Positions 479-31,808 of a stretch of DNA of 55,991 nucleotides are shown one piece after another; position 1 is the first letter of the stretch, and each line of letters opens with the position of its first letter. Position numbers and translations under genes: made by a program. Location: the NCBI GenBank assembly GCA_963575745.1, contig CAUYUJ010000118.1, positions 62,001-117,991 of the forward strand, in the 5' to 3' direction. The notes under the pieces are model-generated. The model searched no databases and was not told where the DNA came from. It was given only the letters and a program-made list of their open reading frames with translations. Source of the stretch: Prorocentrum cordatum (taxonomy: Eukaryota).

Positions 479-3400
479 TCACCTGCCAAGTTGTACGTGT
501 ATACACATCTCGGCAATGCCATTGAGAAGAGAATGTGCAGCTGCCAACTCAGCCTGTGTGATCGTGCAATGGCTAGGGATCATGAAACCTCTGCGGCCAA
601 CTCCAGGGTGCCATCCACCCTGCACAAGTCCAGGGGGAAGCTGGTGAGGAGGAAGAGAGGGAACAAGATAAACATCAATAACCCAGCCACACGAGGTGCC
701 ACGCTCACACCGCCCACCGTCAAAAGCTCCTCTAAGTGCACGAACAATATAATGACCCGATCTAATATGATAAAGAGTGTTATGATTCCAACGAACATCA
801 GAAGTTACTTTACCCTCACGTGCAAGATGTGTCTCATAGTCCGCCTCATCGTTGCCCTCCCTATACACCCATTTCCACATATCCCTTCCCACTTCAGCCG
901 TGACAAGATGATGGTCCTCACTCATTCTGTGGAGGCGGTTCTGCATACCCTTGATCGTGCGGCGGTATACTTCATTATGACAGCGATATCTTCCATTAAG
1001 CCAGCGCACAACACACTGGCTATCCCCACGGAGCTCCAAGCCATATCAACCCCCTTCCCCACGCCAAGTGGTTTCATCATCATTTATCGCGGCCAGTCGT
1101 TTCGCCACCCGTTCATTTTCCCGTCGTTGCTGCTCCTCAGACTTCTCCTCCCCCTTCTCCTCCTGCTTGAACTCACCCGTGAAGGGATCCCGAAGAAGGC
1201 AGAACTCGAGAAGATCATCCAAGTCCAGGGCGGCCAGGGTACCCACCAGGAAAGAACGCCAGCCAGTTTCATGCCAGACCATCGTGCGATCCCAATGAAC
1301 CCCGCGCGTGTGCTCGAAGACCTCGAACCAAGGCCTGAGTCCCGTCAAGACTCGATGACGACAGGTTCTAGTAAACCTTCGGCCCCCAGGGAGAGCTCTA
1401 ACATGTACGTCGCGCTGCTCAGTCCACTCCCCCGACGCGTGCATCATCGTCAAGGCGCTCTGCATACTGGCAGTGGGCAATCCTCCTTCCTCCTCCCGTG
1501 CATAGGTACGGCGTACCCGCTTACGAACAGGCTCATGTACATGTTGTGAATCGTGATGCTCATATGCCGTGTTCTCCGATATACGTCTGCGAACTGATCT
1601 ACTTTCCAAGGAAGATGCGCTCTGTGCCTTTCTCCTACACGAACTGTTGAGCTGTCTGGCATTCGGGGTAGGCGAGGGAACCGATAACTCCAAGAAACGC
1701 TGCGAACCACCAAAAATATCAGGATCTCGTGGCTCATGATAAAGAATGCCCTGACTGAGTGCGTCCTCATCCACCCGACTATGTTCCTCATGGATTGTGC
1801 TCACAACATGTTTGGCGAAGAGCCACTGGCGATGAAGGGCGAGCTGGACCATCGAAGGCTTACGGGCCCACTTCAATAAGCGACGGCCACCCTTAATCCT
1901 CCTGCCCCAGTACTCTCCCCAGGACTCCGTGATCTTCTTTTTGAGACGTCTCATGGTGGACAAGAAGTTGCCTTCAGCTGCATGTATCTGTTGGAGACTA
2001 CTCGAATCCAGAGTCGTACCCTCCAAGCCGTACAGAAAGCAACTTCTGACCCTGCTATCATAACGCTGAAACTTACAACGAAGCGGAACCACGGGCGACG
2101 AGTAAAAAGAAATCTCACTCATGAAGACCCTCCGTGCCTTCTCCAGTCGGTGCTTAATGTCGTCATGATCCTGAAATCGTACATCCAATAGCGTGCCGAG
2201 AACCTCCATCCTCTCCACCTGCCTCACTATCATCTCCTCCGAAGGGCCTGCGGCGCTCTGGGAAGCCCCACGAGAACGCTTCCTACCCATCTCAGCAGGC
2301 AGGAGCCCCGGTACAGGCAGGCGGATATCCTGCAATGGACCTTGAACGCCACAAGCCAAGAACTCCATCGAAGATGCTTTCCAGTTGAAACCGAAGCGGT
2401 GGAGGACCCCAGTCAAGTCCTCGAGCATATGAGTCAGTTCTCGCCTGGAAGCTGCTGCCAGCAAAATATTGTCTGCCCACAGCCAGTGGTTGACCAAGAG
2501 GTTGGATGCCTCATCAGTGAGCCTGACGCCGTATCCAGACTGCCTCCAACCTGCCGTCACTGGTGCAAGCATACGAAGTGTCTGGGCAACAAACAGCAAA
2601 GGCGCCTCCAAGGAGCCTGTACGTATGCAAGTATCCCACGAGATGGTCGTAGAACACTGTTGGAAGCTGATCTCTGCCGTATTACAAGCATAACTCTCAA
2701 AGACAGCATACACAAGGGCAGGATGGACATGATGGAATAAAAGCGCCTCTGCTGCACATCTCACCGTGAAATTATCAAACGCCTTTTCAATGTCAGCACT
2801 TGCAAGATAAAGACTCTCCTCCTTCCCCCACACAACGCCGTGTTGAGCAAGACGTTTGAGGGGGGCCGTGACCTCATAACATTTGTGCCCCGCAATAAAG
2901 CCATATAAGTTGCAACCTGGCGGCGCAGCCTGCCGAACGCGGTGCTCTAGAAGTACACATAGACAACTGCTATACCACTTACCAAAATGAGAAAGAAGTG
3001 AGAGGGCCCGCGTTTCTTCAAAATCACGAGCCTTGGGATTCTTAGGCATCAAGCATACCAAGATCTCTCTCCAGGACTTCGGTGAAACATGTTTCTGATC
3101 GTACAGCAAACGGAATAAGGTAAGTATGCGTCGGAGGGCTTCCCATGGCAATGCTTTGAGCACCGATGACGTCACCCCGTCTGCACCTGTTGCCCGTCCT
3201 TCCCTGGGTCTAGACCGTGCCTCCAGCAAGAGACCCATGTTGATCGGGTTGCGGTGGGGCTCTCCAAAGTCTCGCAGGGCCTTACACTGGTTCTTAAGCT
3301 CATCCAAGCACGCGTTGGTGTCCTGTCGGTGGGGATCGCTGGAGTACCTCAGGAGCCCATGCCGCCGAAGGCCCTCAATCCACTTCTCCTGGTCACGCGT

Positions 3401-4747
3401 GAGGACCCCGTCAACATACATGTGCGTAATAACAGGCCTACGACGGACACCATCACGAATACGGTAAAGCTCACATGCACGATCATGACGCTTACGTACT
3501 CGACGCCACCTCCTTGCTGTCCCCTTGTACTCCTCCTGGACTCTCTCGTACTCCTCCTGTCCCACGTTAGCCCCGCCATATCGTGCCACCCTCCACCTCT
3601 TCCTGACCTTAAAGAACTCCTCCTTTATCAGTAAATCCTCCTCCGAATATCTGGGATAGTCTGAAACAGGCTGACCACGGGAACGGGAGATATCCAAAGT
3701 CTCACTGGCACCCTCAAGTATACTCTGTGTCATGACCTCAAAACCTACATCCGTGTGGATCTGATTCACGAGCTCGGGCTGGCAAATCGCTCTCTCCAAG
3801 CCGGCTGTCTGCTGGAGCTCGAACCCTGGCTGAAGCTTCCAGGTCTTGAGCTGAGGCCGACGTCGATACCTCAACTGAGCATGCTGGGCGGGCATATCGG
3901 CACACAAGAGCTTGTGATCGCTAAACGTCCTTTCCGTCGCCTCCGACCGTGGGACCTGGGACGGCACAACCCAAGAACAAGTCACCTCTGGAGTCATCCA
4001 AGAAGCTGGGACCGCAAGATAATCATAGACGTGCTCGTATGTGCTCGAATTGTGTCTCCAAGTAGGCTGACGAGTCCCAAAAGTGTTGGCTAGCTGCAAC
4101 TTGAGGGCCCCCATGGTCTTCAGAAAGGCCCCCGAGTACATCTCCCTCATCCTGTTGGCTCTACTTTCGTCACCTCCACTAGACCTCCCCCTCTTACGTA
4201 TAGGCCCATTCACCGCCTCCCCCGTAACCTCCACCCCATTGATCCTGTGGTGCGGGAAAACCTCCACGTTGGCGTCAGCCGAGATAACAACCTCCTCAAT
4301 GTGAAATCGCTTTTTGGCCGCAGAGACATGTGCAACAAGATCCGATAACACGTCCGTATAGAGCTTGAAACTAGCAAGAAACCCTTCAGGAGAACGGCGT
4401 GCTTCACCCTGTGCACCCCGCTCAGACTCCTTATGAGGGAGATAGACAGAAACGAAGATGAGCTTGCGAAAGATTGCAATGACCCAGCGGCGACCACACA
4501 CAACATCGATAAGCAGATGTCTCCATACACCTCGGCACAAGATGGCAGCCCGTCTCCCCACGTTCTCCCCTTCATCTGCCGAGCGATGTATATCCCAACC
4601 CGCATCTGCAAGATCCAAGTCGTGTAAGAACTGGCTCTCTTGGACCCCGACGATGGAAATCTTTAATTCGGCAATGTGATTCATGCACTCGGAGGTGTAT
4701 CTTCCCAACCTCCGAACGTTCCAACCTCCAACAGAAGCTGGGCACCG
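479..4747 (-). CDS. ORF2 of element 1: APE endonuclease, reverse transcriptase, permuted RNase H; one in-frame TGA at 1046-1048
   Basis: APE motifs GWNV, VQE, VYLP, SADAN, YDY, SDH; RT motifs ATGADGV, ADIEKAFD, IRTGSLEAP, WADN; RNase H motifs GDS, YREGNDEAD, FDGG, TQAEL. Track ORFs 1046..4708 and 479..1039 are in the same frame. Confidence 0.92.
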
Positions 4748-5860
4748 TCACGAGCTGCTATTCACCTGCCTCTCCCAAGTCTTGCAGTCCAGATCTGGAT
4801 CGATGTGCTGGACCCGCTCGGACACGAACTTCCATCCCACGGTATCCGTCCACGTACCTACACACACTTTATCACTCTGACTATCCTTCTGCAGGTATGC
4901 CCAAGCCTTTGCAGGCCCTTCAGGCTCAAAAGTGATGAGAGCAGTGGCAACAGTCTTGAGCTTATGAAAGATCGCAGTCGCCTTGCGAGTCTCCCCCACT
5001 CTACGTCGGTCCTGTGGTGCCGGTTGGACAAACCAACCGAGGCGTCGATCTTTGCACGGTCCAAAACTATTCTGACAACCGACCAGATCAGGGCACGAAT
5101 TGGACCAGGCTGAGGCCCACTCGTTGCGTACTTCCCAGACCGTCTCTTTCGAAGTCCCTGGCATGAAGTATATGCGAAACTTGGTCACACCAAATCGATT
5201 GGAAGCGATATCCCCGTCCGTCCTACCTCTGTCGAAGATCTTAGTAACGTCACTCTCCCGTGCTTGCGATAGTGTGTACAACTTACCTATCATGTTCCTA
5301 ACCGTGGTGACCTGGATCTTGGCCTTATCTCGAGTTTCAACCTTTCGGGGGTCCTCTTGCGCGAAGCCGCTCACCTGGATCCAAGTCGGAACATGTGGTA
5401 CAAAGGGTCTCTGGAAGTCAGCAGTCCGAGAATCACGAGTAGATGCACCTCCCAGAGATGATGAATCTGCCCAGGGATCTCTAGAGTTCATCTGAGACTG
5501 AAGTGCTTTGATCTATTTCGCCTGGGCCTCCTGAGCTGAACGAATCTCCTGCACCGACGAAGCAATAGGGGCAACCTGCTCTGATACCCTCGTTTGAATC
5601 TGCTCTTTGATGTCAACAGAGTTCTGCATAAGCATCCTCTGCATATCTTCACGCATGGCATCGAACTGTGCACGGAGCATAGTGGCCAGATCTCCAGCAT
5701 CACCTCCACCTCCTCCACTACTACCACTTCCATTCCCACTAACTGCCCCACCTCCACCACCCTCGGCATCACCAAGAAGACGTCTATCTTCCAGGAGCTT
5801 CCTCTGTCGCTTCTCTCCGTTGCCCTCAGTTCCCATATCATCATCAGAAGTCGGAACCAT
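4748..5860 (-). CDS. ORF1 of element 1 (coiled coil plus conserved C-terminal domain); internal in-frame TAG at 5513-5515; frame open upstream to the element 5' end
   Basis: Track ORFs 5513..6523 and 4748..5491 share a frame (AK*IKALQSQMNS); RIYFMPGTSKETVWE matches RIYFKPGTSSEILWE (element 2) and RLYFQNGVTSDQLWD (element 4). First ATG at 5860. Confidence 0.8.
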
Positions 5861-6372
5861 CTTCCTCTTAGGATCACACTGCCCACAACTGGAAGTAGAA
5901 TACCGATAAGCTCGACAAGTAGGGCACCTACTAGCCTCCAGATCACGATAGTGTTCGTCCTCGAGTTCTTCAAGAAACTTATCCCAACCCCGTGAAGGTG
6001 AAAGTCGGTACGTGATGAAATCTGCTGCAACAAAAACGGCCAAAGTGTCCTTCTCAACTGCCAGAGCAAAACTGGTAAGTGCCGGGCTCCCAAGAGTATC
6101 ACAAGCAAACAGCAAAGATACAAGTGCAACAGGTAGCGGCCTTGCGCCTCCAGCGGCACGCGTGGGCTCACCCGCTAACACGAGCAGAGTACAAATGCAG
6201 CGACCTATGCGCAGCACGTCCAGGAGGTTGCAGCCGACGAAGTACACGAACTTATGGGCCAGCGCGCACCCACGCGCGCCCACGGCCGCCCAGGGGGCAG
6301 CCTGAGGAGACAGGCTTGAGGAGGCCCCCGACGGGCCAGGCCACCGCTGAGATCCCCGAGGAGGGACAGCGG

Positions 6373-9300
6373 CAACCTGGTCACCGCCGGGAACCTCGTA
6401 GAGCTCCTTGCTTGCACCCATGAGAAAGCTCAGGATCGAAGCGGAGAGCTTCTGGGAGCTTCCTAGAAAAACGTCAAATTGAGATTCTTCGGAGTCAACA
6501 TGACGTCGGTTCCGGGAAGTCAACTAATACAAACTGGCTCTAGAGAGCTGAGCTGCTGAGGAAACAAAGTTTATATGCCAATGCTCGGCGTAAAAATCTG
6601 CTTTCTCAAAATGAATTGTCAAATATCTTTCAAATCTGAGCAAAACCGACCCAAAGTCAACACTTTGTCCTTTCTGGTCGGCCCGACCAATGGGAACCGG
6701 CGGTAAACCGTCAACCAGGTTACCGCCGGCACCTCGTAGACCTCTTTTCTTGGACAGCGCTCCTCGGAACACATGAAGGAAGCTTCTGAAGCGAGAGCCG
6801 AAAAAATCGAAAAATCACGATTTTTCGGTTTTCATCCAAAGTCGTTTCCTCCAAGTGTTTTGATAGTAATACTGCACCTACGGACCTGAGAATTTGACTG
6901 GCAGACGCGGCATAACCCACTCCCCTCCCTCCCTCCCTGCCTGCTCACCGAAGAAGCTCATCAGATGACTCAGAAAAAACGCATTTTTTAGTGTCGATAC
7001 AAAGTCGGTTCCTCCAAGTGTTTTCATAGTAATACTGTCCCTAGGGCCATGAAAGATTAACCAGCAGGTGCGCCATAGCTTACTACAGGGAATGAACATC
7101 TCACTCCTGGAAACGAACTTCAACATTTGCCCCCCCAAAAAAAAAATGCACGGCGATCCTCGGAACACATGAAGAAAGCTTCTCGAGCGAGATACAACAA
7201 AAAAACGACAAATCACGTTTTTCTGTTTTATCCAACATCGGTTCCTCCAAGTGTTTTTGTAGTAATACTGCAGCTACGAACCTGAGAATTTGACTGGCAG
7301 ACGCGGCATAACCCACTACAGGTGCGAAAAATCTGCTCTCTCAAAATGAATTGTCAAATATCTTTCAAATTTTCGCAAAACCCACCCAAAGTTACCACAT
7401 TGTCTCTTTTGGTCGGCTCGGCCAACTAGCTCCACCCCGCGCCGGAATTCCTCTAGCTCATCGATGACGAAGAGCTCTACGAGGTACTAGCTCCACCCCG
7501 CGCCGGAATTCCTCTAGCTCATCGACTGGCGCCGGCGGTGAACCGTCAACCTCGTCACCGCCAGGAACCTCTTAGAGCTCCTTGCACGCATTGAAGTGCT
7601 CAGAATCGAAGCAGACAGCTTCTCGGAGAATTTCTCGAAAAAACGTCAACTTTGCATTTTTCGGTGCCACTGTGAGGTCGGTTCCTCCTAATTTTTCGAT
7701 AGTAAAACTGGCTCTAGAGAGCTGAGCTGCTCTGGGAATGAGTTTTATATGCCAATGCTCGACGTAAAAATCTGCATTCTCAAAATGAATTGCGGAAGAG
7801 CTCTCAAGCGCATCTGCAGCTCGAGTAAGTGGAAAAATCACCATCAGCTCGAAAAAAAAGGGTCGCATACGAATAGCTTTGCGGACCTAGCTCGGGTAGC
7901 AGACTGTGTTCAGAGCTCTAGATGCTCCAGCCTCCAGCCGAACGCCCCTGATGATGCTCGATGGGTTTCTGTGCGCTACAGCCCTGCAACTCTGCTACAG
8001 CTTCAGTTAAGTACAGAAGACCGACAGCGCCTGCAAAGAGAACTTGAAGAATACAAATAGTTTTGCGGACCTAGCTCGGGTAGCAGACCGAGTTCAGACC
8101 GCTCGATGCAACAGACGGACGCGCCTAATCATACATAATCCTCTCATGTGCGTACCAGCTCTGTAGCTATTCTGAATCGTGAGTTAAGGACAGAAAACCG
8201 ACAGCACTCGTCAAAATGACTCCAAGAATACGAATAGGTTTGCGGTCTCGAGATAAGTACAGAAAACCGTCAACACGTGTCAAGGACTCGAAACGGTCGA
8301 CGGTTCCCTCAAATCTTTTGATAGTAATATTGCAGCTACAAACCTGGCAATTTCACAGCCGCGCGCGCAATAACCCACTACAGGCGGGAAAAACACCTGT
8401 TCTTAAAACGAACTTTCAAATTTTACACACACATAGAAAAACCGACCCCAGGTTATCACATTGTCTCTTGGGGTCGGATCGGTCAACTAGCCCCACCCTG
8501 CGCCGAATTCCTCTTAGCTCATCTTACCGAAGAGCTCTACGAGGTATATCTTTCAAATCTTTGCGAAATCAACCCAAAGTTATCACATTGTCCGTCCGGG
8601 CCGGGTCGACCACTGGGAGCCGGCGGTAAACCGTCAACCAGGTTACCGCCGGGAGCCTCGTAGAGCTTTCCTCGCACAGCGCTGCTCGTAACACGCGGGG
8701 AATCTTCCTCACACGCGAGCTGAAGACTCGAAAAATACTTCAAGTGTTTCGATAGTAATACTGCAGCTACGAACCTGAGAATTTCACTGGCAGACGCGGC
8801 ATAACCCACTACAGGTGCGAAAAATACCGGTTCTCGAAACGAATGTTCAAATCTCTCAGAAAGTTTGCCCAACCGACCCAAAGTTCACACATTGTCCGCC
8901 CGGGCCGGGTGGATCAACTGGAAGCCGACGGTAAACCGTCAACCAGGTTACCGCCGGGGCCCTCGTAGAGCTCTTTTCTCGCACGGCGCTCCTCGGTACA
9001 GACAAAGGGAGCGTCTGGAGCAAGACCCGAAAAACTCGAAAAATCACGTCTTTATGTTTTTATCCAAAGATGGTTCCGCCAAGTGTTTTGATAATAATAC
9101 TGCGCCTACGGACCTGAGAATTTGACTGGCAGACGCGGCATAACCCACTACAAGTGCGAAAAATCTGGTTTCTCAGAATGAATTGTCAAATATCTTTCAA
9201 ATATTCGCAAAACCGACCCAAAGTTACCTCTGGGCGCCGGCGGTAAACCGTCAACCTTTCTTACCGCCGGGAGACTCGTAGAGCTTCCTTACCATATATT

Positions 9301-11503
9301 ATGTCCACAGAATTAGCAGAGAACAAGTAGTTGATCTCAGGCTTCTAGATATACTTCACTGTTGCCCAGAGCTCTAGATGCAACAGATGCACGCCCCTGA
9401 TGATGTGAATCGATTGATGTGCACACGAGCTCTGTAGCTCTCCTACATTTCGAGTTACGTACAGAAAACCGACAGCATCTGTCAAGGTGACTCGAATTAT
9501 ACGAATAGTTTCGCGGACGTAGCTCGAGTAGCAGACCAAATTCAGGCCTCTAGATGCAACAAATCAACGCGCCTCATGCTTTGGGATGGGTTTTTGTGAG
9601 CATCAGCTCTGTAGCTGTCCTACAGCTCGAGTTAACTCCAGAAAACCAACACCACCTCTCAGGATGACTCGACTAATACGAATAGGTTCGCGGGCTATCT
9701 CGGGTAGCAGACCGAGTTCGGACCTATAGATGCAACAGATGAACGCGCCTGATGATTTTCAATGAGTTCCTGTAAGTATCAGCCCTGTAGCTGTCCTACA
9801 GCGTACAGGAACCCGACAGCATCTGTCAAGATAACTCGAATAATACGAATAGCGTTGCGGACCTAGCTCGGGTAGCAGACCGAGTTCAGACCTCTGCATG
9901 CAACAGATCGACGCGTCTGATGATTCGGGATGGGTTTCTGTAAGCTTCAGCTCTGTAGCTGTCCTACAGCTCGAGTTAAGTACAGAAAACCCACATCACC
10001 TGTCAAGATGACTCGAATAATACGTATAACTTCGCGGACCTAGCTCGAGTAGCAGACCGAGTTCAGGCCTCTAGATGCGACAAATGAACGTCTATGATCA
10101 TTTTAAATGGTTTCCTGTAAAGTATCACCTCTATAGCTGTCCTGCAACTCAAGTTAAGTACAAAAAACCGACAACGCGTATCAAGATGACTAAAAACTGG
10201 GCGCCGGCGGTAAGCCGTCAACCTTTCTTACAGCCGGGGGACTCGTAGAGCTTCCTGACCATATATTATGTCCAAAGAATTCGTAGAGAACGAATAGTTT
10301 TTCAGCCCGAGCGCTGATAGGAGACTGATCTGAGGCGTCTAGTGATATCCCATTGCTGTGCTCAACACTTCTATAGCTCATCTGCAGCGTGTAAAAAATA
10401 CCATTAGGGAGAAAATAGCAGAGTACGAATCCGTGTTTGGCGTCTGCGCTCACAACAGACCCAAAATAAGCGTCTAGATGCTTTGCGCCTCACGATGTCC
10501 TTCTGATTTTTCGGCCGAAGAGCTCCCGAGCTGCTCTGCAGCTCGAGCTCAGCGAAGAAATTCACCATCATTTGGAAAAAAATGTCGGTCGAATACGAAT
10601 ATTTTTGTGAAGCTAGCTCGGGTAGCAGTCCGAGTTCAGACCTCGCGATGCAACAGACGAACGCTCCCAATGCTTCTGCATCAGTTTCTGTGCGCACCAG
10701 CTCTGTAGCTCTCCTACAGCCTGAATTCAATACAGAAAATGGACAACATCTGTCAAGATGACACGAAGAATACAAATAGTTTTGCGGACCTAGCCCGAGT
10801 AGCAGACCCAGTTCAGACTTCTAGATGCAACAGACAAACGGGCCTGATGATTCCGAATCAGTTTCTGTGCGTATGAGCTCTGTAGCTCTCCTACAGCCCG
10901 AGTTACGTGCGAAAACGGACAGCACCTCTCAAAATGACTCGAAAGATACCAATAGTGTCGCGGACCTAGCTCGAATAGCAGACCGAGTTCAGACCTCTGG
11001 ATGCAACAGACGAACGCGCGTGATTATTGTGCATCGGTTTCTGTGCGCATCAGCTCTGTAGCTCCCCTAGAGCTCGAGTTAAGTACAGAAAAACGACAGT
11101 CCTGTCGAGATAACCCGAGCGATACGAATAGACCTAGCTCGAGTAGCAGACCGATTTCATACCTCTGCATGCCACAGGCGAACGCGCCTGATGTCGCCAA
11201 ATCGGTTTCTGCAATTACCGGCCATGTAGCACCCCTACAGCCCCAGTTAAGTACAGAAAACCGACAGCACCTCTCAAGATGACTCGAATAGTACGAACAG
11301 TTTCGCGGACCTAGCTCGAGCAGCAGACCGAGTTCAGACCTCTGGATGCAACAGACGAACGCGCCTGATGATCTTGAATCGGTTTCTGTAACCATCAGCT
11401 CTGTAGCCCCTCTACAGCTCGAGTTAAGCTTTTTTATAATTTATATTAATATGTATGTATTAATATATAATAATAATGATAAAATTTATCGTAAACCCCC
11501 CCC

Positions 11504-11541
<38 letters not shown>

Positions 11542-14500
11542 GACAACGCATGTCAAGATGACCCCAAACGGCCGATCCCGACCGTGTGCTTTTTGGCATT
11601 AATATCTACCCGATCGAGCTAAGATTAAGACGGCAATCGGGAATAACTTCGAATATCATGGTAAGAATACTAGATCTCCAACGAATGGTTCAATTTCGAA
11701 AACAAAATTTTCAACCGACCAAAAGTCACCAAAAGGTCCATCGAGATTTTTCTTGCCAACTAGCTCTCCGGCGCCCCGGAATTACTCTTAAGCTTCCAGC
11801 ATAAGCTCTGTAGCTGTCCTACAGCTCGAGTTAAGTACAGAAAACCGACGACGCGTGTCAAGATGACCCGAAACGGCCGACCCCGCCCGTGTGCTTTTTG
11901 GCAGTAATATCTACCCGATCGACCTGAGATCAAGACGGCGAGCGGGAATAAGATCGAATATCACGGGAAAAAATACTAGAGCTCTAACGAATGGTTGAAT
12001 TTCGAAAACAAAATTCTCAACCGACCAAAAGTCACCAAAAGGTCCGTCGAGATTTTTCTTGCCAACTAGCTCTCCAGCGCGCCGGAATTACTCTTAAGCT
12101 TCCAGCAACTAGCAAAGGAAAGCTCTACGAGTTACAGCCGATCCTGCCCGCGTGCTTTTTGGCAGTAAAAGATATCCGATCGAGCTGAGATCAAGATGGC
12201 GAGCAGGAATAAGGCCAAATATCACGGGGGAAATACTAGAGCGCTAACGAATGGTTGAATTTCAAGAACAAAATTTTCAACCGACCAAAATTCACCAAAA
12301 GGGTCGTCGAGATTTTTCTCACCAACTAGCTCTCCAACGCCCCGGAACTGGGCGCCGGCGGTAAACCGTCAACCTTTCTTACCGCCGGGGGACTCGTAGA
12401 GCTTCCTGACCATATATAATGTGGAAAAATACAGAGAACGAATAATTTTTCAGCCCGAGATTTCAGACCTCTCGATGCAACAGCCGAACGCCCCTGATGC
12501 TTCTGGATCGTTTTCTGTGCGCACGAGCTCTGTAGCTCTCCTACAGCCCGAGTTACGTGCGAAAATCGGCAGGACCTCTCAAGATCACTCGGACAATACG
12601 AATAGTTTCGCGGACCTAGCTCGAGTATCAGACCGAGTTCAGACCTCTGAACGCGACAGACGGACGCGCCTGATGTCTCCAAATCGATTCCTGTGATTAC
12701 CAGCCCTGCAGCCCCCCTACCGCCCGAGTTAAGTGCAGAAAACCGACAGCACCTCTCGAGATGACTCGAACAATACGAATAGTTTCGCGGACCTAGCTCG
12801 GGCAGCAGACCGAGTTCCGAGCTCTGGATTCGACAGGCGGACGCGCCTGATGTCTCCAAATCGATTCCTGTGATTACCAGCCCTGTAGCCCTCCTACAGC
12901 CCGAGTTAAGTACAGAAAACTGACAGCACCTCTCAAGATGACTCGAACAATACGAATAGTTTCGCGAACCTAGCTCGGGCAGCAGACCGAGTTCAGAGCT
13001 CTCGATTCAACAAACAAGCGCGCCTGATGATTCTGAATCGGCTTGTGTACGCATCAGCTCTGTAGCTGTCCTACAGCTCGAGTTCAATACAAAAAACCGA
13101 CAGCGCCTGTCGAGATGACTCGAAACGGCCGATCCCGCCTGCCTGCTTTTTGGCAGTAGAAGGTACCCGATCGAGCTGAGATCATGACGGCGAGCGGGAA
13201 GAAGATCGAAAATCACGGGAAAAATACTAGAGCTCTAACGAGTGGTTGAATTTCGAGAAAAAAAAAATCGACCGACCAAAAATCACCAAAAGGTCCGTCG
13301 AGATTTTTCTTGCCAACTAGCTCTCCAGCGCGCCGGAATTACTCTTAAGCTTCAGCAACTAGCTAAGGGAAGCTCTACGAGATATTACTCTTAAGCTTCC
13401 AGCAACTAGCTAAGGGAAGCTCTACGAGTTACTTGGTAGCGTCCACTTGGTAGCGTCCAAAACCCGGAGAGCAAAGAGACACTCGGGGACTGGGAGCCGG
13501 CGGTAAACCGTCAACCAGAGCTCTTCTCTCGCACGGCGCTGCTCGTAACACGTGGGAAGAGTCTCACACGCGAGCTCAAAACTCGAAGAAATACGTTTTC
13601 TTAGTTTTTATCCAAAGACGGTTGCTTCAAGTGTTTTGATAGTAATACTGCAGCTACGGATTTGCAAATTTATTGGCGGGCGCGGCATAACCCACTACAG
13701 GTGCGAAAAATACCAGTTCTCAAAACGAATGTTAAAATCTCTCAGAAAAATTGTCCAACCGACCCAAAGTTCACACATTGTCCGTCCGGGCCGGGTGGGT
13801 CAACTAGCTGCACCCCGCGCCGGAATTCCTCTAGCTCATCGATGCCGAAGAGCTCCACGAGGTACTCTTTAGCTTCCAGCAACTAGCTATGGAAGGCTCT
13901 ACGAGTTATAGGGATCCGGCGGTAAACCGTCAACCAGGTAACCGCCCGAAGCCTCGTAGAGCTCTGTTCTTGCGCGGCGCTGCTCTGAGCGCACGGAAAA
14001 AGCTTTCTCAAGCGTGAAGAAAAAAGCTCGAAACAAATATTTGTTCATTTCGTATCCTCCTTTTGTGGACCTAGCTCGAGTGCAAGACCGAGTTCAGACC
14101 TCTCGATGCGAGAAAAGAACGCGCCCGGTGATACTCGATCGGTTTATATGCGTACCAGCTCTGTGGCTCTTCTAAATCTTCAGTTAAGGGAAGCCGACAG
14201 CACCTGTCAAGATCACTCGTATGATGAATAGTTTCGCGGATCTAGCTCGAGTAGCAGACCGAGTTCAGACCTCTCGATGGAACAGACGAACGTGCCTGAT
14301 GATTCTGAAGCGGTATCTATAAGCATCAGCTCTGTAGCTGTCCTAAATCTCGAGTCAAGTACAGAAAACCGTCAACGCGTGTCAAGATGACTCGAAACGG
14401 CCGACGATTCCCTCAGATCTTTCGATTGTACTTTTGCAGCTACGGACCTGAGAATTGAAGTGAGAGACTCTGCATAACCCACTACAGGTGGAAAAAATAC

Positions 14501-15928
14501 CGGTTCTCAAAAGGAATTTTCAAATTTTGCAAAAAGATTGAAAAACCGACCCCAAGTTACCACATTGTCTCTTATCTTAAGGTCGCGTCGGCTCCCGGCG
14601 AGAGCTTCCTTGCCATATATTATGTCCAAAGAATTGGCAGAGAACAAATAGTTTCTCAGCCTCCGCTGATAGCTGACTCGAATACAAAACTGAATTCAGA
14701 GCTCAAATGATGTTCAATCGATTGATCAGCATCTGTCCAGATATCTCGAATAATACGAATAGGTTCGTGGACCTAGCTCGAGTGGCAGACTGAGTTCAGA
14801 CCTCTAGATGCAAGGGATCAACGCACCTGATGATTTGGGATCGGTTTCTGTTAATGGGAGCCGGCGGTAAACCGTCAACCAGGTTACCGCCGGGAGCCTC
14901 GTAGAGCTCTTGTCTGCACGACGCTGTTTGGAACACATGGGGGAAGCTTTCTTACGCGTGAGCTGCAAAGCCTTAAAAATTATGTTTTTCAGCTTTCACC
15001 GAAAGTCGGTTGATTCAAGTGGGGAACCGACAGCACCTCTCAGATCACTCGTATAATACAAATAGTTTCGCGGATCTAGCTCGAGTGGCAGACCGAGTTC
15101 AGAGCTCTCGATGGAACAGACAAACGCGCCTCATCATTCTGAATCGATTTCTGTAAGTAGCAGCTCTGTACCTCTTCCAAATCTTGAGAAGTACAGAAAA
15201 CCGTCAACGCGTGTCAAGATGCTCGAAACGGCCGACGGTTCCCTCAAGTCTTTTCATAGTAATATTGCAGCTACGGACCTGAGAATTTCACTGGCAGACG
15301 CGCACGGCGCGGGCGGTAAACCGTCAACCTTTCACCGCCTGGGGACTCGTAGAGCTTCCTGACCATCTATTGTGTCTGTAAAAAGAGCAGAACAAATAGT
15401 TTTCAAGCTCGAGCTGATAGCAGGGTGATTTCAGGCGTCTAGTGATATCCCATGCTGGAAGGAAGTAGCAGAGTACGAATCCGATTTTGGCGTCTGCGTT
15501 CACAACAGACTCACACCAAGCGTCTAGATGCTTCACGCCTCACGATTTCCTTATGAGCTTTTGTCCGCTCGAGTGAAGAAATTCACCATCATTTGGAAAA
15601 GGAAAAAATGATAGCAGACCACGTTCAGACCTCTCGATGCAACAGACGCTCGAATAATACGAATAACTTCGCAGACCTAGCTCGAGTAGCAGACCCAGTT
15701 CAGACCTCTGGATGCAGCAGACGAACGCGCCTGATCAGTCTGCATCAGTTTCTGTGCGTATCTGCTCTGTAGCTACCCTAGAGCTCATAACTCGAACAAT
15801 ACAATAATGTCGCGGAGGTGGCGGGTAGCAGACCGAGTTCAGACCTCTAGATGGAACGGACGAACGTGCCTGATTATTCTGAGAAGATTCCTATTAACTT
15901 GGTAGCGTCCATCTGGCGTCCACTTGGT
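6373..15928 (-). repeat. Nested mosaic of Helitron2/HINE-like non-autonomous elements
   Basis: Terminal hairpin motif near 6697, 7533, 8620, 8925, 9237, 10205, 12355, 13497, 13916, 14861 and 15311; opposite-end AGCTCTACGAG near 7473, 8533, 12121, 13371 and 13421; internal ~177-bp repeats. Confidence 0.8.
11429..11540 (+). other. AT-rich insert ending in C9-A36
   Basis: Replaces the usual TACAGAAAAC between GAGTTAAG and CGACAACGC of the 177-bp repeat. Confidence 0.6.
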
Positions 15929-15981: not shown

Positions 15982-18900
15982 CTAGGGCCCCTCACGCCCT
16001 CTCAACCTCTTTGGGGTTGGAGGCCCGAGGATCTCAGAGATAATCTGCCGAACACCTTGGAGCAGGCGTTCACAAGCTGTGAGCTCGCTATCAGTAACAG
16101 TGGCCCCCAGAGGGAGTAAAGAAGCCTCCTGGAAAACTCGTCGCCAGTGGTTGCCCCCAAATGAGACCTCCACATAGCAACCTAGAGCAGAGCCTTCAAC
16201 ACTCACGCCACCGTCCCATCCTCCACGGATACGTATGATACAATGTCTCTGTTGTCGTAAATATCTGAAGTCAATCCATCTTCCCGTCCTTCCCCTCCTC
16301 GCCTCCCAAGTCAACTCATCCGCAACACAATTGAACTCTCTGTAGATATGCTTCCACGGACCCGCCCCTACAGTGGCACACCTGATGTCGTAATCCTCCG
16401 CCAGTTGATTCATATCGTTTTGTAGGCCGTGCACTCTCCTGCGGTACGAACGATCACGGCATTCCCAGATCCCTCGGGCCCAGTTCACCACACACATACT
16501 ATCACCAGTCATTTCAACCAGCAATGAGCTCTCCGAGCCCTCCTGCCAGACAGCTTCGTTGTTATATCCGTGGGCAATCCTACGAGCGAGCCTGTCGGAG
16601 TCCTCAGGGGAGTCCCACGTATCCACAGGGCAAGGAGCACAGGGCGGTTTCCTGAAGATGGGCTCCCATCGAGGCTGTATTTTTTCATGCACGCAACTAC
16701 ATTCCACCAGTCCGTCGCATTCCACTTGATGCTGAACCAGCGTAAATTACCACTCGCCGCCAACATAAGACAATGCCAACTGTCAGTGCTTGCATGCGCT
16801 CTCCCTCCCACTCTCCTCGTACCTCCCCTCCTCCTGGCTCCCGTGAACATGGATACAAGTGTGTCCCTCCGTAGCGACCATTCCCCCGCACAGTGTAACA
16901 TGGCCTGCAGCGTCTGACGCCAGGCTCGTGCCCCACGGACGTCCGTGGAGGCGAAGGCCCGATCATGAAACTGGGCCAGCTCCAGCGCAAACTCGAAATT
17001 GGCTCGGACCACCTTCTCTAGGAGACTGCAGTGGCCAGCCTGCAAGAACAGCTCGTATGACTTCGGTGTGGTCCTGTCCCTGAACTCCTCCCACGTCTCC
17101 TCCTCCCTCTTGTGTAATCCTCGCATACCGTTGAGACACCTCCCCTCCCAGACCTTAATCCTCTCCAGCAGTCGTAGATTGCACGGCCAGCCTATACATC
17201 CGTGGTACACCACAGACTGCACACGAGCGGCATACCTGCGAAACTTCTCTTTGAGTGAGACCGATCTGGAGCGATAAAACTTGATGTCAGCAAAATAGGC
17301 CTTCCTCCCTTTCTCCAGTCGATGATACAAGCCGTGATATCCCTTGATTTCCGAGCTGAACTTCACTCCTAGTACCTCCACCTCCTCCTTCCTCGGCATT
17401 ACGACAGTCGAGCGCAAGTGCTCTGGGAGATCCTCATCTCCAGAAATCGCACAGGTGGCTGGCGAGAGCGTGCAGAGCAGCGGCGGATCTCCATCTGTGT
17501 ACGTCTGGCCAAAAAGTACATACGCCAAAGAGTCCTCCTTCCAGTCCATCCCTGCCCGTCTGAGTGTTACCGTCATCATACCGATCATCTGTTGTAGCTG
17601 GAGCTGCGATGCAGCACAGAGCGTAACATTGTCCGCCCACAAGAAATGGTGTACAAGAGCACCGTCCGTCCCATCCCCTTCCAGTCGGACACCGTATCCT
17701 AAGGTGTCCCAAGTCTGAATCACAGATCCCCAGATGGCCTCCAAGACAATATTGAAAAGTATGGGTCCCTCCTTACCTCCCGTTCGGACCGATTTGTTGT
17801 ATCTCACCTCATCGCCGCACACGTTCTGAAACTCAAAGGTAGCAATGTTATCCAGCATGGGCTCCACAATGGCTCTGATGAGGCACACAGGGTACTTAAG
17901 GTACAGCATGGCCTTGATGATAGTGTGCAGTGTGACATTATCGAAAGCTTTGTGTATGTCCAAGACTCCCACGTGCATAGACTCCGCCTTCCCCCACACA
18001 TTTGCATGTCTAGTAAGATGTGATAGTGGTGCCGTGACGTTAGTAACCTTCTGATCCTTCTCAAATCCGTATGTGCACAACCGTCGGTTCACAGGAAATG
18101 CATCAATAAACTGCAACACACATGCCATGTACCATTTACTCATCACACTGATCAGGCAAATCCCTCTGGTGTTGGAGAGTCGTGTAGCATCCCGCATCTT
18201 CGGCACAAGTTGGATACTGAGCTGCCTCCACGTCTCAGGGCTGGAGGCTCCCTGCTCGAAAATCCTCTGGAAAGCACGCCGCACAAACAAGAGGCTCCTC
18301 CACGGCAACTCACGAATGACCTCAGCAACGACTCCATCGCTGCCGGGTGCCGTGCCAGGCTTCAAAGACGCACGAGCCTGCATGAGCATGCCCATCGTGA
18401 TGACTCTTCCCTCCACCCCACGGTCGTTGTGTCTGAGTTCCTGAAAGGCCTCCAAAGTCCGTTTTTCCTCCTCCGAGTTCGTGTAAGACGCCGTCGCATA
18501 CCTAGTGATCTCCGTACTCCACCTAGTCCTGTCCATTGTCAGCACACCCTCACACTCCAGCTCCTTGAGGATACACCGTGAGGTCTTACTGGATCCCCTG
18601 TGGTCCTGCAGGAGTTGGTTCCTCCTATGCTGTCTCCTAAGGGTCTTCCTCCTACGCAGCAGTTGTTTACGAGTATTCCCAAGGGCCCCACGCCTGATGG
18701 CAGACTCCACCTCTATGAGCTCCCTGGGCCTCTGAATAGGTTTGCAGTTGGGGCGCCCCTTAGTGTGGTCCACAAGCTTTGCCGTCTCCAAGAGTACCCG
18801 TCCGACCTGCTGCAGGTCCGTCCCTACCGTGTCCGTTGCAAGTCCCTCAATCGACACATCCGCAAGCACACGAAACATGTTCCTCGCCGTGTCATCCGTC

Positions 18901-19763
18901 GGCTGCCAGCCAACCATGGACACAGGGCGGGGTGGCAAAGCTGGGCGCCTGATCTCCGTCGTCTTGAGATTTACCCAGACCAGAGCGTGATCACTATAGG
19001 CACTGGCTTTTGCACGTATACCTGGCGTAGCTTTGATGGGTTCCACAAACTGGACCTGGCATCTCATTTCCTGGTGAGCTCTTGCCTCATCCGCGCACCA
19101 ACGTGTAGGGATGAGTATATAGTCAAGCACACGCTGCACATGTGTGGAACAGTACGGTATATGTGTGATACGTCGGTCTCCATATGTGTTCGCCGCACAG
19201 ATCCCCCAAGTACTCATGAACCTCATAAGCATGTCCCTCCTCTCTGCATGGTAGTTCGCCTCCTCCCTCCTCCCGTCCACCTGCATAAGACCTCCTCCCG
19301 TCATTCCCAGCATATCTGGTTCAAGTTCCGTCTGAGCATCCATCCCCACCCATGGTATGACTCCAGCCTGTGTAGTTTGAAACATAGTAACACTGCACTT
19401 AGTAAGTACATCTAAATATTCCCCCAAGTGGTCCACGTCACGCATCACACATGGTAGATACACTGGTGTAACTAGAGCACCCCTGAATTCAACACACGCA
19501 AATCGTACCCCACTCCGTCGAGCAATCACATGTGGTGCCCAATCCCTGCACCATGCAACCGCCGCCTTGGAGCAGGAGCTATAGTGAATCTCCCATCCGC
19601 ATCTGTTAAAAGTATTTGCACTGGTATGCTCACACTCTTGCAGACACACCGTTTGAATTGACCTGGCTTCACATGCAGCGACCAGGTTGGGCACTTGACC
19701 GTCGGATATTTTCTGCACATTCCAGGTTGCGACCACGGTCTCAGTCGCAGCCCTACCGCCCCG
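15982..19763 (-). CDS. ORF2 of element 2: APE-RT-permuted RNase H; one frameshift near 16680
   Basis: TWNV, LQE, VYLP, LDY, SDH; APGSDGV, LDIHKAFD, VRTGGKEGP, WADN; GDS, HIYREFNCVAD, WDGG, TDSEL. The frame most plausibly changes at an A6 run (16680-16685). Confidence 0.92.
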
Positions 19764-21134
19764 TCAATGATTCGGGCACCGTAGTGTCTGAAGAAACTGC
19801 ACCTGATTAATATCGGGCTCAACGTGTGTCAAATTATCACCATAGAGGTTCCATCCTTTTGTCGGTCCCCATTCTGCAATCAAAGTCTTTTGTGTAGTAT
19901 CAGCATTCGGCATATACCACATGTATGTCATTGGCGGACCCGTCTCACCTCGAAGAATAGCCGTCGCATTTTTCTTGATATCAGAAAATAGTGCTTGAAA
20001 CCGTCCTACCGCCCGAACATGTTCTATCTTCCATGGCTGGCATTCAACTTGAAATCGCACGTTGGGAGGCAATGAAGTGAGACCCCGTCTGTAGTCATTC
20101 TCCCACACACGTTTCGCTTCCCATAGGATCTCAGAGGATGTACCTGGCTTGAAATAGATCCTACCCCTCGTGTACGGCCAATATCTACCAGTATTCTCCT
20201 GAACCGCCCGATCCAAGTCCAGTGCCGCCCTCTGTGTAGCATCAATTTGTTTAGAGTCAATAAGACCATTCATCGCCGTCGTCAGTGCCTCCTGTGAAAG
20301 AGCCTCCCGCTGACGTATCTCACGGTTCCTCCATCCCTCCCTTGAAACCCATCCCTTGAACTCAACATAACGTGGATTCCAAGCAGGATCGTGCCTGTCC
20401 GTACCCGCCTTCGTGGATCCACTTGCTACAGACAGCCCGTCCCCCTGCTTGAGCTTCTGAACTTCATTGGTGAGGTCCTGGATCGCCGATTCTGTTTTTG
20501 ATACCCTGGAGTCCAGAGATGTTTTGAGACCGTCCATTTCCGTACGAATAGAGTTCCTGAACGATTGCATGTCTGCCGTCATAGTCTGTTGTCCCGTCAT
20601 GATGGAACGAAACATCTGTTCAATGTCCAGACCAGCTTCCTGGGCAACCTCATTCGCCCCCAACGTTTGTCCCGCACCTCCTCCTTCTCCTTTCCCTCCT
20701 CCTTTGACATTACGAGCACGGACAGCTCTAGCAAACGCCCCACCCCCATCATCAATTGTCATGTCCTGGCCCACCGCATGCAAGCCTGGAGCACCTGGAA
20801 CTGAAGAACCTGCTGGCATCGCTGGTGCAACACCTGAAACTGAAGAACCTGCTGCCGCCATCTTCCTTTTGTGGCTGCGCAAGATATTGAAATCGTAACC
20901 TTCACCCTGCACGAAGTGGTTACGCAAGATATGGAAATCGTAACCTTCACCCTGCACAAACGGTACGGTTGGTGTGAGCGATGGCACACAAATAACAGCT
21001 CCCCTGTCACCTCGAGGTGTCCCGACCTGTCTAGCAAGATAGTCCCAGTCCGCGTGACTGAAGTCGGATCCCCAGCACTCCGTCGTTCCAAGAGAGAGGA
21101 AAAGATACAATTGCAGCAGTAGCAATAGCCGCAA
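19764..21134 (-). CDS. ORF1 of element 2 (uninterrupted; first ATG at 20861)
   Basis: 456-aa ORF; heptad-like segment followed by VEFKGW, PWKIEH, GETGPP and GW motifs shared with ORF1 of element 4. Confidence 0.88.
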   Translation of the reverse strand: MRLLLLLQLYLFLSLGTTECWGSDFSHADWDYLARQVGTPRGDRGAVICVPSLTPTVPFVQGEGYDFHILRNHFVQGEGYDFNILRSHKRKMAAAGSSVSGVAPAMPAGSSVPGAPGLHAVGQDMTIDDGGGAFARAVRARNVKGGGKGEGGGAGQTLGANEVAQEAGLDIEQMFRSIMTGQQTMTADMQSFRNSIRTEMDGLKTSLDSRVSKTESAIQDLTNEVQKLKQGDGLSVASGSTKAGTDRHDPAWNPRYVEFKGWVSREGWRNREIRQREALSQEALTTAMNGLIDSKQIDATQRAALDLDRAVQENTGRYWPYTRGRIYFKPGTSSEILWEAKRVWENDYRRGLTSLPPNVRFQVECQPWKIEHVRAVGRFQALFSDIKKNATAILRGETGPPMTYMWYMPNADTTQKTLIAEWGPTKGWNLYGDNLTHVEPDINQVQFLQTLRCPNH

Positions 21135-25300: not shown

Positions 25301-25369
25301 TTTTCGGACCTAGCTCGGCTAGCAGACCGAGTTCAGACCCCTGCAGCGCTGCTGAAGCCTGCCAGAAAC

Positions 25370-25411
25370 GCTTCCATGCGTGCCTGCACGCGTGCAGGCA
25401 CGCGTGGAAGC
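25370..25411. repeat. 42-bp near-perfect palindrome
   Basis: GCTTCCATGCGTGCCTGCACG|CGTGCAGGCACGCGTGGAAGC with one mismatch; second copy at 21417-21458; collapsed copy near 38669-38697. Confidence 0.85.
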
Positions 25412-25774
25412 TTGCCGGAAGCTCTCCCGGACACGTTGCCGGGCCGGGCGAGTCGCTGCGGGGAACTGGCGCCGGCGGTGAACCGTCAACCTGGTCACCG
25501 CCGGGACCCTCGTAGAGCTCCGTTCACGCGTGAGAGAGCTCAGAGTCGAAAGAGAAAGCTTCTGGAAGCATTTCTGCAAAAATTGAACATTGATTTGTTT
25601 CATGTCGAGATGAAGTTGGTTCCTCCAAGTGTTTTGATAGTAAATGTGCGCCTACAGAGCTCATATTAAGACGGAGAGGCCCTCATATTCGTTTACAGGT
25701 GCGAAAAATCTGCTTTCTCAAAATAAATGGTCAAATATCTTTCAAATATTCGCAAAACCACCCAAAAGTTACCA

Positions 25775-26969
25775 CTGGGCGCCGGCGGTAAACCGTCAAC
25801 CTTTCTTACCGCCGGGGGACTCGTAGAGCTTCCTGACAATATATAATGTCGAAAAAATTACAGAGAACGAATAGTTTTTCAGCCCAAGCGATTTCAGACC
25901 TCTCGATGCAACAGCCGAACGCCCCCGATGCTTCTGGATTGTCTTCTGTACGAGCTCTGTAGCTCTCCTACAGCCCGGGTTACGTGCGTAAATCGACAGC
26001 AACCCTGAAGATGATTCGAACAGCAAACCTAGCTCGAGAATCAGACAAAGTTCAGGCCTCTGAATGCAACAGCCGGACGCGTCTGGTGTCTTCGAATCGA
26101 TTCCTGTGATTCCCAGCCCTGCAGCTCCCCTACAGCCCGAGTTAAGTGCAGAAAACCGACAGCATCTCAGGATGACTCGAACAATACGAATAGTTTCGCG
26201 GACCTAGTTCGGGCAGCAGACCGAGTTCCGAGCTCTGGATTCCACAGGCGGACACGCCTGATGTCTCCAAATCGATTCCTGTGACTACCAGCACTGTAGC
26301 CCCCACAACCCGAGTTAAGTGCAGAAAACCGACAGCACTTCTCAAGATGACTCGAACAATACGAATAGTTTCGCGATTCTAGAGCGGGCAGCAGACCGAG
26401 TTCAGAGCTCTGGATTCAACAGACAAACGCGACTGATGACTCTGAATCGGTTTCTGTAAGTATCAGCTCTGTAGCTGTCAGCTCGAGTTAAGTGCAGAAA
26501 ACCGAGAGCGCCTGTCATGACTCGAATAACAACAAATAGGTTTGCAGACATAGCTCGGCTAGCAGACAGAGTTCAGACCTCTCGATGCGACAGACGAACG
26601 CGCCTGATGATTCTGAATCGATAAGGTGTGCTTACCAGCTGTGGAGCTGTGCTGTATCTCGAGTTAAGTCCAATATACCGACAGCGCGTATTAAGATGAC
26701 TCGAAACGGCCGATCCCGCCTGGACGCTTTTTGGCAGTAAAAGGTACCCGATCGAGCTGAGATCAAGATGGCGAGCGGGAATAAGATCGAATATCACGGG
26801 AAAAATACTAAAGCTCTAACGAATGGTTGAATTTCGAGGACAAAATTTTCAACCGACCAAAAGTCATCAAAAGGTCCGTCGGGATTTCTCTTGCGAACTA
26901 GCTCTCCAGCGCCACGGAATTACTCTTAAGCTTCCAGCAATAACTTGCTAAGGGAAGCTCTACGAGTTA
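25775..26969 (-). mobile_element. Complete ~1.2-kb HINE-like element (long subfamily, internal ~177-bp repeats) nested in a short-subfamily copy
   Basis: SubTIR ACTCGTAGAGCTTCC / GGAAGCTCTACGAGT; host AAGTTACCA^CTTTGTCC rejoins exactly (intact copy near 39305-39321). Confidence 0.8.
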
Positions 26970-28751: not shown

Positions 28752-29143
28752 CTGGCGCCGGCGGTAAACCGTCAACCTGGTCACCGCCGGGAACCTCGTA
28801 GAGCTCCGTGCACGCGTAAGAATGCTCAGATTCAAAGCAGACCGCTTCTCAGAGCATTTCTAGAAAAAAACATCATATTTGCATTTCTCGGTCTCAACGC
28901 GACGTCGGTTCCTCCAAATGTTTGGATAGTAAAACTGTCTCGAAAGAGCTGAGCTGCTCGCAGAATGAAGTTAAGATACCAATGCTCAGAGTAAAAACCT
29001 GCTTTCTCAAAATGAATTGTCAAATATTTTTGCAAACCCACCCAAAAATTACCACTTTGTCCTTTCTCGCCGGGTCGGCCAACTAGCTCCACCCCGCGCC
29101 GGCATTCCTCTAGCTCATCCATGCCGAAGAGCTCTACGAGGTA
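28752..29143 (-). mobile_element. Complete ~390-bp HINE-like element nested in a long-subfamily copy
   Basis: Host AAGATGA^CTCGAAAC rejoins exactly; both termini and both subTIRs are present. Confidence 0.8.
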
Positions 29144-31776: not shown

Positions 31777-31808
31777 TGGGCGCCGGCGGTAAACCGTCAA
31801 CCTTTGTT

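Follow-up and report, generated by a model that had tools for sequence, protein, structure and literature searches.

Reversed RNase H halves at the 3' end of ORF2 in a LINE family of Prorocentrum cordatum and other marine protists: a probable natural circular permutation

A 55,991-nucleotide stretch of DNA from the dinoflagellate Prorocentrum cordatum (assembly GCA_963575745.1, contig CAUYUJ010000118.1, positions 62,001 to 117,991 of the forward strand; hereafter the window) contains four elements, E1 to E4, that resemble long interspersed nuclear elements (LINEs). In the family to which they belong, the 3' end of the second open reading frame (ORF2) very probably encodes a circularly permuted type-1 RNase H of about 175 residues, of the archaeal or RVT_3 kind. 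Both halves of the domain are homologous to those of RNase H and occur in reversed order, this order and four carboxylates are conserved throughout the family, and the whole is confidently predicted as a single domain. The chain would begin with beta4-alphaB-alphaD-beta5-alphaE, carrying the aspartate of a GDS motif and that of RE.N..AD, would continue through a linker of about 30 residues uniting the old C- and N-termini, and would close with beta1-beta2-beta3-alphaA, on which the aspartate of FDGG and the glutamate of AEL are located, the protein ending a few residues past alphaA. This succession of C-half, linker and N-half would place the new termini in the former loop between alphaA and beta4.

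A six-frame motif scan, read together with the translations, revealed the same order in each of the four elements: GDS, then RE.N..AD, then [FW]DGG, then T.T..E[LI] and the stop codon (Table 1). The original prediction, made from the sequence alone, had described these motifs in this order and at these places, and had also held that the four acidic residues were kept across divergent copies; both statements were borne out, the four active-site carboxylates being present in each of E1 to E4. Hidden Markov models (HMMs) of each half-domain were built from homologues and run with filters off on the six-frame translation of the whole window. The C-half HMM recognized four places only, with E-values of 1e-25 to 1e-31, and the N-half HMM gave matches only directly downstream of each C-half, with E-values of 1e-10 to 5e-25. 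The motif arrangement is far beyond chance.

The relationship to RNase H was seen with a family profile, A2, which is an alignment of 54 sequences. Against RNase H1 of Halobacterium (4e19_A), A2 gave an E-value of 2e-10 in two stretches of reversed order: profile positions 45-121 corresponded to chain residues 133-198, and profile positions 131-204 to chain residues 62-127, the two stretches adjoining in the chain. The FDG, AE, GDS and N..AD motifs were aligned residue for residue. The same reversed pattern of two stretches was obtained with 3u3g, 3aly and 2ehg. The solved RNase HI structures matched were 4e19 and 4nyn (Halobacterium), 3u3g and 4h8k (LC11-RNase H1), 2ehg and 3aly (Sulfolobus tokodaii RNase HI), and 3hst (the N-domain of Rv2228c from Mycobacterium tuberculosis). 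In Pfam, RVT_3 was matched by 27 of the 54 members of A2 at E<=0.01, and no other family was matched; in most of these members, RVT_3 positions 60-123 aligned with the N-terminal part of the protein. In the homologue P0089, residues 108-163 corresponded to RVT_3 positions 2-56, and the homologue P0152 passed the RVT_3 cut-off with 29.3 bits. Two partial profile matches in reversed order had been predicted, and they are seen both with solved RNase HI and with RVT_3. With single window copies as queries, Pfam detected only the C-half, at RVT_3 positions 63-122 of 123 (E-values of 0.003-0.18).

The reversed order was also evaluated by swapping the halves in silico. HMMs were built from 70 rows containing both halves, either in the native column order or with the N-half first, and were compared with three canonical RNase H proteins with PF13456/PF00075 domains. 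Against the canonical protein P0161, the swapped HMM aligned as one stretch over 5-152 of 154 positions with 47.7 bits, whereas the native-order HMM gave two separate matches, of 30.9 and 7.2 bits, whose order was reversed. For the other two canonical proteins, the best stretch scored 41.9 bits with the swapped HMM versus 29.4 bits with the native one, and 31.1 versus 27.8 bits. The full match anticipated after such a swap was recovered with P0161.

A profile of E1-E3 was searched against 1.84 billion representative proteins and matched 417 clusters at E<=1e-3; of these, 135 were still matched at E<=1e-10 and 25 at E<=1e-30. Almost every match ran along one collinear stretch of about profile positions 4-183. 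In long family proteins the match lies at the extreme C-terminus (for example, residues 1112-1297 of 1306 and 1238-1446 of 1455); for the matches listed, the median distance from the domain end to the protein C-terminus is about 12 residues (range 0-52, with one case of 111). Among the 150 matches listed of the 417, the C-half preceded the N-half in 111, while 28 contained the C-half only and 11 the N-half only (fragments); none showed the orders N-then-C, N-C-N or C-N-C. All 10 of the proteins listed with two stretches had them in C-then-N order, and 17 further proteins agreed, including one P. cordatum protein and a 1286-residue NCBI protein, also C-then-N. In the three canonical RNase H proteins the order was N-then-C. 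A search for longer family proteins found 2, and residues 1080-1306 of P0006, when used as a homologue query, found only P0006 itself. All four window copies are damaged somehow, and the order might be regarded as an artefact of assembly, of scrambled pseudogenes or of chance motifs. Such an origin is scarcely credible, as the order recurs in those 111 independent cluster representatives from several sources and in contigs from RNA libraries, and as the half-HMM E-values reach down to 1e-31.

Duplication is the usual route to permutation, and a helix lies before beta4, about as far from it as alphaA would be. The arrangement could thus be the remnant of a tandem duplicate (N-C-N-C) with a degenerate first N-half upstream, the downstream N-half being a leftover and no true permutation existing. 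This explanation is extremely improbable. In the six frames of the window, the half-HMMs run with filters off found no N-half upstream of GDS and no C-half downstream of the stop, and the best stray upstream N-half match in 12 long homologues had an E-value of only 2.2. The downstream N-half has its conserved aspartate and glutamate and is conserved as much as the C-half, and in no protein among the 150 listed does a C-half follow an N-half. An upstream N-half, which the original prediction had named as the sign of a tandem duplicate, was found neither in the window nor in these listed homologues. The 75 residues upstream of the domain, aligned for 42 homologues, contain a conserved basic motif rich in K and R, followed by W; a profile of this region compared with the N-half gave an hhalign probability of 0.1%, which lends no support to the helix before beta4 being a relic of alphaA. 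The permuted domain itself likely originated when a canonical domain was duplicated in tandem or fused head to tail and the outer half-domains were subsequently lost.

In the alignment of top matches, the catalytic residues were almost invariant: the aspartate of GDS was conserved at 95% (110 rows with a residue), that of AD at 97% (138 rows), that of FDGG at 97% (126 rows), and the glutamate of AEL at 98% (99 rows). D, D, D and E occurred together in 62 of the 65 rows having all four catalytic columns filled, and the H, R, E and N of H..RE.N..AD were kept at 88-100%. This conservation suggests an active enzyme for the family, all four of the window copies being damaged. The linker joining the halves, counted between the aspartates of alphaE and beta1, has 26-49 residues (median 32). 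In 2ehg, the residues after the last aspartate and before the first number about 30, as judged from the positions of the A2 alignment; the linker length thus approaches the sum of the canonical tails and would fit a head-to-tail join.

RNase H domains of LINEs are generally assigned the role of removing the RNA template from the RNA:DNA hybrid. By analogy, the permuted domain would degrade the RNA strand of the hybrid formed by target-primed reverse transcription. The fold may also be permuted and the domain not be a hybrid-specific RNase H, acting instead on another substrate, such as double-stranded RNA, DNA flaps or the second target strand, or serving mainly as a nucleic-acid-binding module. 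The permutation shifts the tethering to the reverse transcriptase, a conserved basic helix precedes the domain, and some archaeal-type RNase HI enzymes also cleave double-stranded RNA, all of which favor such a role; the retention of the four catalytic carboxylates and of H..RE.N..AD, along with a position after the reverse transcriptase that matches that of canonical LINE RNase H, makes it unlikely.

AlphaFold2 was applied to 218 residues of E3 with alignment A2, and the model was a compact single domain with a pLDDT (predicted local distance difference test) of 92.3 and a pTM (predicted template modeling score) of 0.87. Its first part comprises a helix (7-23), a strand (35-41), helices (44-51 and 59-79), short strands (81-83 and 91-93) and a helix (100-111), and its second part a strand (115-118), a helix (125-130), long strands (131-145, 148-161 and 173-184) and a helix (190-213). 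As in RNase H, D42 lies at the end of beta4, D103 on alphaE, D141 on beta1 and E194 at the beginning of alphaA. The original prediction would have been refuted by a model that did not gather the four acidic residues into one site, and this placement on the expected elements speaks to that point indirectly. The halves would rebuild the usual five-stranded sheet and a single D-E-D-D metal site. The permuted order and a linker of this length would allow either pairing mode, so that the C-half of one ORF2 chain could complement the N-half of another in a domain-swapped dimer. Nothing direct speaks for this dimer; the compact, confidently predicted monomer, and a linker that appears sufficient for intramolecular closure from the comparison with 2ehg, make it very unlikely.

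Structural comparisons of the modeled permuted domain recovered RNase H half by half. The N-half, folded separately, had a pLDDT of 88.5, and its best match among 48,161 chains was 3u3g_D, residues 1-69 (Z 5.8, root-mean-square deviation 2.5, 67 residues); the next matches, at Z 4.0-5.1, included 4e19, 3aly, several RNase H domains of retroviral or retrotransposon reverse transcriptases, and Escherichia coli RNase HI. RNase H domains of the foamy virus and cauliflower mosaic virus reverse transcriptases, as well as RuvC, were among the non-significant rows of Foldseek for the N-half. With the whole model, VIA-align placed the RNase H chains 3u3g, 3aly and 4e19 at Z 3.5-3.9, with the C-half aligned to the C-half only; 3u3g_D covered 82 residues with 27% identity in the model range 24-115.

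The window is eukaryotic-looking and packed with repeats, and its four LINE-like elements all lie on the minus strand. Pfam detected RVT_1 in the long open reading frames of E1 (E-value of 1.2e-07), E2 (1.7e-13) and E4 (5.4e-12). A profile built from E1, E2 and three homologues of full length matched human LINE-1 ORF2p with an E-value of 6e-15, profile positions 330-696 corresponding to residues 316-681, and also matched R2 proteins, with E-values of 1e-9 to 1e-10. Such a profile was needed, as phmmer with E1 ORF2 alone gave nothing in the PDB at E<=0.01. As judged from these sequence matches, the family consists of non-LTR (non-long terminal repeat) retrotransposons. Pfam found no match in the N-terminal 236 residues of E1 ORF2; the ORF2 family profile had only a weak match to the exodeoxyribonuclease 8igi (E-value of 0.061), and a conserved SDH motif and other invariant acidic residues are visible by eye in the family alignment. 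Both this family and human LINE-1 appear to be LINEs of the APE (apurinic/apyrimidinic endonuclease) type. In the presumed ORF1s, Pfam yielded no family at E<=0.01 and only weak coiled-coil-like matches. The three copies that could be aligned share 30-33% identity in the RNase H region and therefore represent old, distinct lineages.

The original prediction had the domain at the C-terminus of ORF2 in all four elements. Taken literally, this holds only for E3, which is itself 5'-truncated. In E1, an in-frame TGA separates the domain from ORF2, at a site that is a sense codon in E2, E3 and the homologues, and the TTG start assigned to the E1 domain at position 1039 turned out to be an artefact of open reading frame listing. 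In E2, a frameshift puts the RNase H domain and the reverse transcriptase in different frames, and in E4 two frameshifts and a proline-run insertion lie within the N-half.

Twelve studies contributed 20 public runs with sequences near-identical to E3, and 8 of the runs are recorded as RNA. In three polyA RNA libraries from two studies, contigs are collinear with the window DNA over the E3 domain: contig X5 record 25 spans 31827-32461, which includes 3' untranslated region, stop codon, N-half and part of the C-half, and contig X4 record 17 (32237-32391) crosses the point where the halves meet. Within the RNase H domain, the RNA-library contigs showed no joints. A search of metagenome contigs with the E3 protein gave 113 pattern matches, none of them confirmed. 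Transcriptome proteins of EukProt labelled Pyramimonas sp. have 86-91% identity to E3; the match of one such protein, at profile positions 71-180, spans the half junction. Other relatives are an unnamed P. cordatum protein (51% identity), metagenome proteins from JGI and ENA, and one NCBI protein.

In contigs of three polyA RNA libraries, position 31854 was also found joined to 32022, a joint that is absent from a likely DNA run. It skips 167 bases, among them the stop, the final codons of E3 and some of the 3' untranslated region, and has non-canonical ends, with only 26 bases on one side. This joint may reflect a variant copy and not splicing.

Several results weigh against a permuted, functional RNase H in these elements. 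Window copies scored 12.1-17.9 bits with RVT_3, for which the gathering cut-off is 21.6, and three N-half pieces from the window gave no Pfam match on their own at E<=10. The low RVT_3 scores arise because only half of the Pfam model can be aligned in order. No copy in the window retains an intact ORF2 fusion, given the TGA of E1, the frameshift of E2, the 5' truncation of E3 and the two frameshifts of E4, and the RNA-library contigs are no proof of transcription, DNA carry-over being possible. The relative placement of the two halves comes solely from the confidence of AlphaFold2. Foldseek, with the whole model against the PDB, retrieved no RNase H, the best chains being PelC and LptE-like with TM (template modeling) scores of 0.2-0.3 (0.24-0.30 for PelC), and with the N-half model it retrieved nothing at E<=0.001. 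In VIA-align the best match of the whole model was HcgF (Z 5.4), RNase H appearing at ranks 12, 19 and 20, and the structural matches to RNase H were weak (Z 3.5-5.8) and tied with those to unrelated formyltransferases (Z 4.7-5.5). The poor matches of the whole model are to be expected, because sequential aligners perform poorly on a permutant, and they are not positive evidence. The structural evidence is consistent with a permuted RNase H, and modest.

It appears rather probable that a whole LINE clade of marine protists employs an RNase H that is naturally circularly permuted and catalytically competent; the named relatives come from the dinoflagellate P. cordatum and from a Pyramimonas transcriptome. 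Such a domain would be the first RNase H1 fold of a retroelement reported to be circularly permuted in nature. The reverse transcriptase joins the domain at beta4, via the basic helix, and not at beta1; the geometry of the tether therefore differs from that of canonical fusions of reverse transcriptase and RNase H. If the permutation is real, the orientation of the nuclease relative to the polymerase site would be unlike that in any known fusion of this kind, and tethering via beta4 instead of beta1 could alter how far apart the two active sites, polymerase and nuclease, lie. The acquisition, loss and replacement of RNase H are central to retroelement evolution; here, a LINE lineage would have rebuilt the connectivity and kept the chemistry. 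The domain would also provide a natural permutant of a classic protein-folding model, and a family of hundreds would offer comparative material. Standard domain models detect a half domain at best and Foldseek misses the fold, and such elements are therefore likely to be annotated without RNase H, which would bias surveys of retroelements in marine plankton.

Table 1. Positions of the LINE copies, their RNase H halves and related features in the window. Motif coordinates give the first base of each motif on the minus strand; residue numbers are those of the E3 model.
Feature	Position	Strand	Remarks
E1 presumed ORF1	4748-6523	minus	upstream ORF
E1 ORF2	1046-4708	minus	1220 aa; endonuclease-like N-terminus and reverse transcriptase
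E1 in-frame TGA	1046-1048	minus	splits ORF2 from its RNase H domain
E1 RNase H ORF	479-1039	minus	186 aa
E1 motifs	GDS 1027; REGNDEAD 862; FDGG 724; TITQAEL	minus
E1 C-half (beta4 to alphaE; GDS ... REGNDEAD), encoded first	806-1039	minus	C-half HMM E 1.7e-30; RVT_3 positions 63-118 of 123, E 0.003
E1 N-half (beta1-beta2-beta3-alphaA; FDGG ... TITQAEL), encoded second	503-742	minus	N-half HMM E 1e-24
E1 stop codon	479-481	minus
E2 presumed ORF1	19764-21134	minus	upstream ORF
E2 reverse transcriptase ORF	16509-19736	minus
E2 RNase H ORF	15982-16725	minus	frame differs from reverse transcriptase ORF
E2 motifs	GDS 16506; REFNCVAD 16341; WDGG 16218; TVTDSEL	minus
E2 C-half	16285-16518	minus	C-half HMM E 1.5e-30
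E2 N-half	16039-16236	minus	N-half HMM E 1.2e-21; ORF end 15982
E3 single ORF	32008-33603	minus	531 aa; uninterrupted frame, 5'-truncated
E3 motifs	GDS 32544; REWNTRAD 32379; FDGG 32247; TVTDAEI	minus
E3 basic helix (AKRIA-type motif) before beta4	32596-32646	minus	AlphaFold2 helix 7-23; N-terminal edge of permuted domain
E3 C-half	32329-32559	minus	C-half HMM E 1.3e-31
E3 catalytic D42	32539-32541	minus	GDS; invariant or near-invariant column
E3 catalytic D103	32356-32358	minus	C-half; invariant or near-invariant column
E3 N-half	32038-32268	minus	N-half HMM E 4.5e-25; stop codon 32008-32010
E3 catalytic D141	32242-32244	minus	N-half
E3 catalytic E194	32083-32085	minus	N-half
E4 presumed ORF1	52939-54530	minus	upstream ORF
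E4 ORF pieces, several	between 48987 and 54530	minus
E4 motifs	GDS 49331; REGNERAD 49169; FDGG 49050; TVTCCEL	minus
E4 C-half	49125-49343	minus	C-half HMM E 1.5e-25
E4 N-half, split in two frames	48982-49068 and 48788-48934	minus	N-half HMM E 1.2e-10 and 2e-13
E4 insertion	48940-48990	minus	microsatellite-like, beta2-beta3 region; reads PPPPPPPPP or SSSSSSSS by frame

Apart from the RNase H domain, the window presents a characteristic 3' end and several repeats. The 20-mer TTGACGGTTYACCGCCGGCG occurs at 43 sites with <=3 mismatches; the minus strand has 41 of these sites (for example, 222-241, 31781-31800, 48659-48678 and 45604-45623), and the number expected from shuffles is 0. It lies about 230-330 bases past the stop of E1, E3 and E4 and also terminates many short repeats, and directly after ...GCGCC(C)AGT the sequence splits into several repeat classes. 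The 20-mer looks like a 3' terminus common to the LINEs and to non-autonomous repeats resembling short interspersed nuclear elements, without a poly(A) tail. A conserved hairpin was considered for this shared motif and found no support: the stem of 10-11 bp in the short repeats was no better than in shuffles (z -1.0 to -1.7), and it is not kept at the ends of E3 and E1. A repeat of about 206 bp, D20, occurs at 12-217, 31571-31776, 48306-48511 and 10 other places, with 62-89% identity to a reference copy, and is found at similar distances beyond the 3' ends of E1, E3 and E4, which is suggestive of insertion among repeats that is nested or prefers certain sites. The regions 7800-15900, 22800-38000 and 40438-45350 contain dense arrays of a 177-bp (approximate length) satellite, with dozens of copies of 60-90% identity, and 13 copies of a 352-bp satellite with up to 100% identity, the latter at 40.4-45.3 kb. 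Nearly all repeats run in the same orientation as the four LINEs. Neither an Rfam scan nor a tRNA scan of the window gave any match.

The original prediction had mentioned no knowledge of a described retroelement with such an RNase H, and no description of one was found in the full-text literature, subscription journals and Repbase reports being outside the scope of that search. One candidate for a prior description, PMC13524379, was ruled out, the passages of that article containing "permut" dealing with statistical permutation tests. A permuted RNase H in retroelements has apparently not been described before.

The closest known relatives of the domain are the archaeal-type RNase HI enzymes and Pfam RVT_3 (PF13456). 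Both halves match these proteins, the FDG, AE, GDS and H..RE.N..AD motifs align, and the two halves each superpose on their counterparts in the same solved chains. In contrast to archaeal-type RNase HI, the halves are in reversed order, a linker of about 30 residues stands at the canonical termini, the protein ends after alphaA, a LINE reverse transcriptase is fused in front of the domain, and a conserved basic helix comes before beta4. The canonical order beta1-beta2-beta3-alphaA-beta4-alphaB...alphaE was seen in none of the four window copies and in none of the 111 two-half homologues among the 150 listed.

A canonical RNase H is present at the C-terminus of ORF2 in the I, Tad1, LOA, R1 and ingi elements, and Smyshlyaev et al. 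are said to have described, in 2013, an "archaeal-like" RNH in plant L1. Like canonical LINE RNase H, the domain of the present family follows the reverse transcriptase and presumably removes the template RNA after first-strand synthesis, and like plant L1 RNH it is of an RVT_3-like sequence type. Unlike canonical LINE RNase H, described as running from beta1 to alphaE, it is permuted throughout the family. The reverse transcriptase core can be aligned with that of human LINE-1 ORF2p (8uw3, 8sxt and 8c8j). To our knowledge, the human protein has no RNase H domain, whereas in the E1-E4 family a permuted RNase H is appended.

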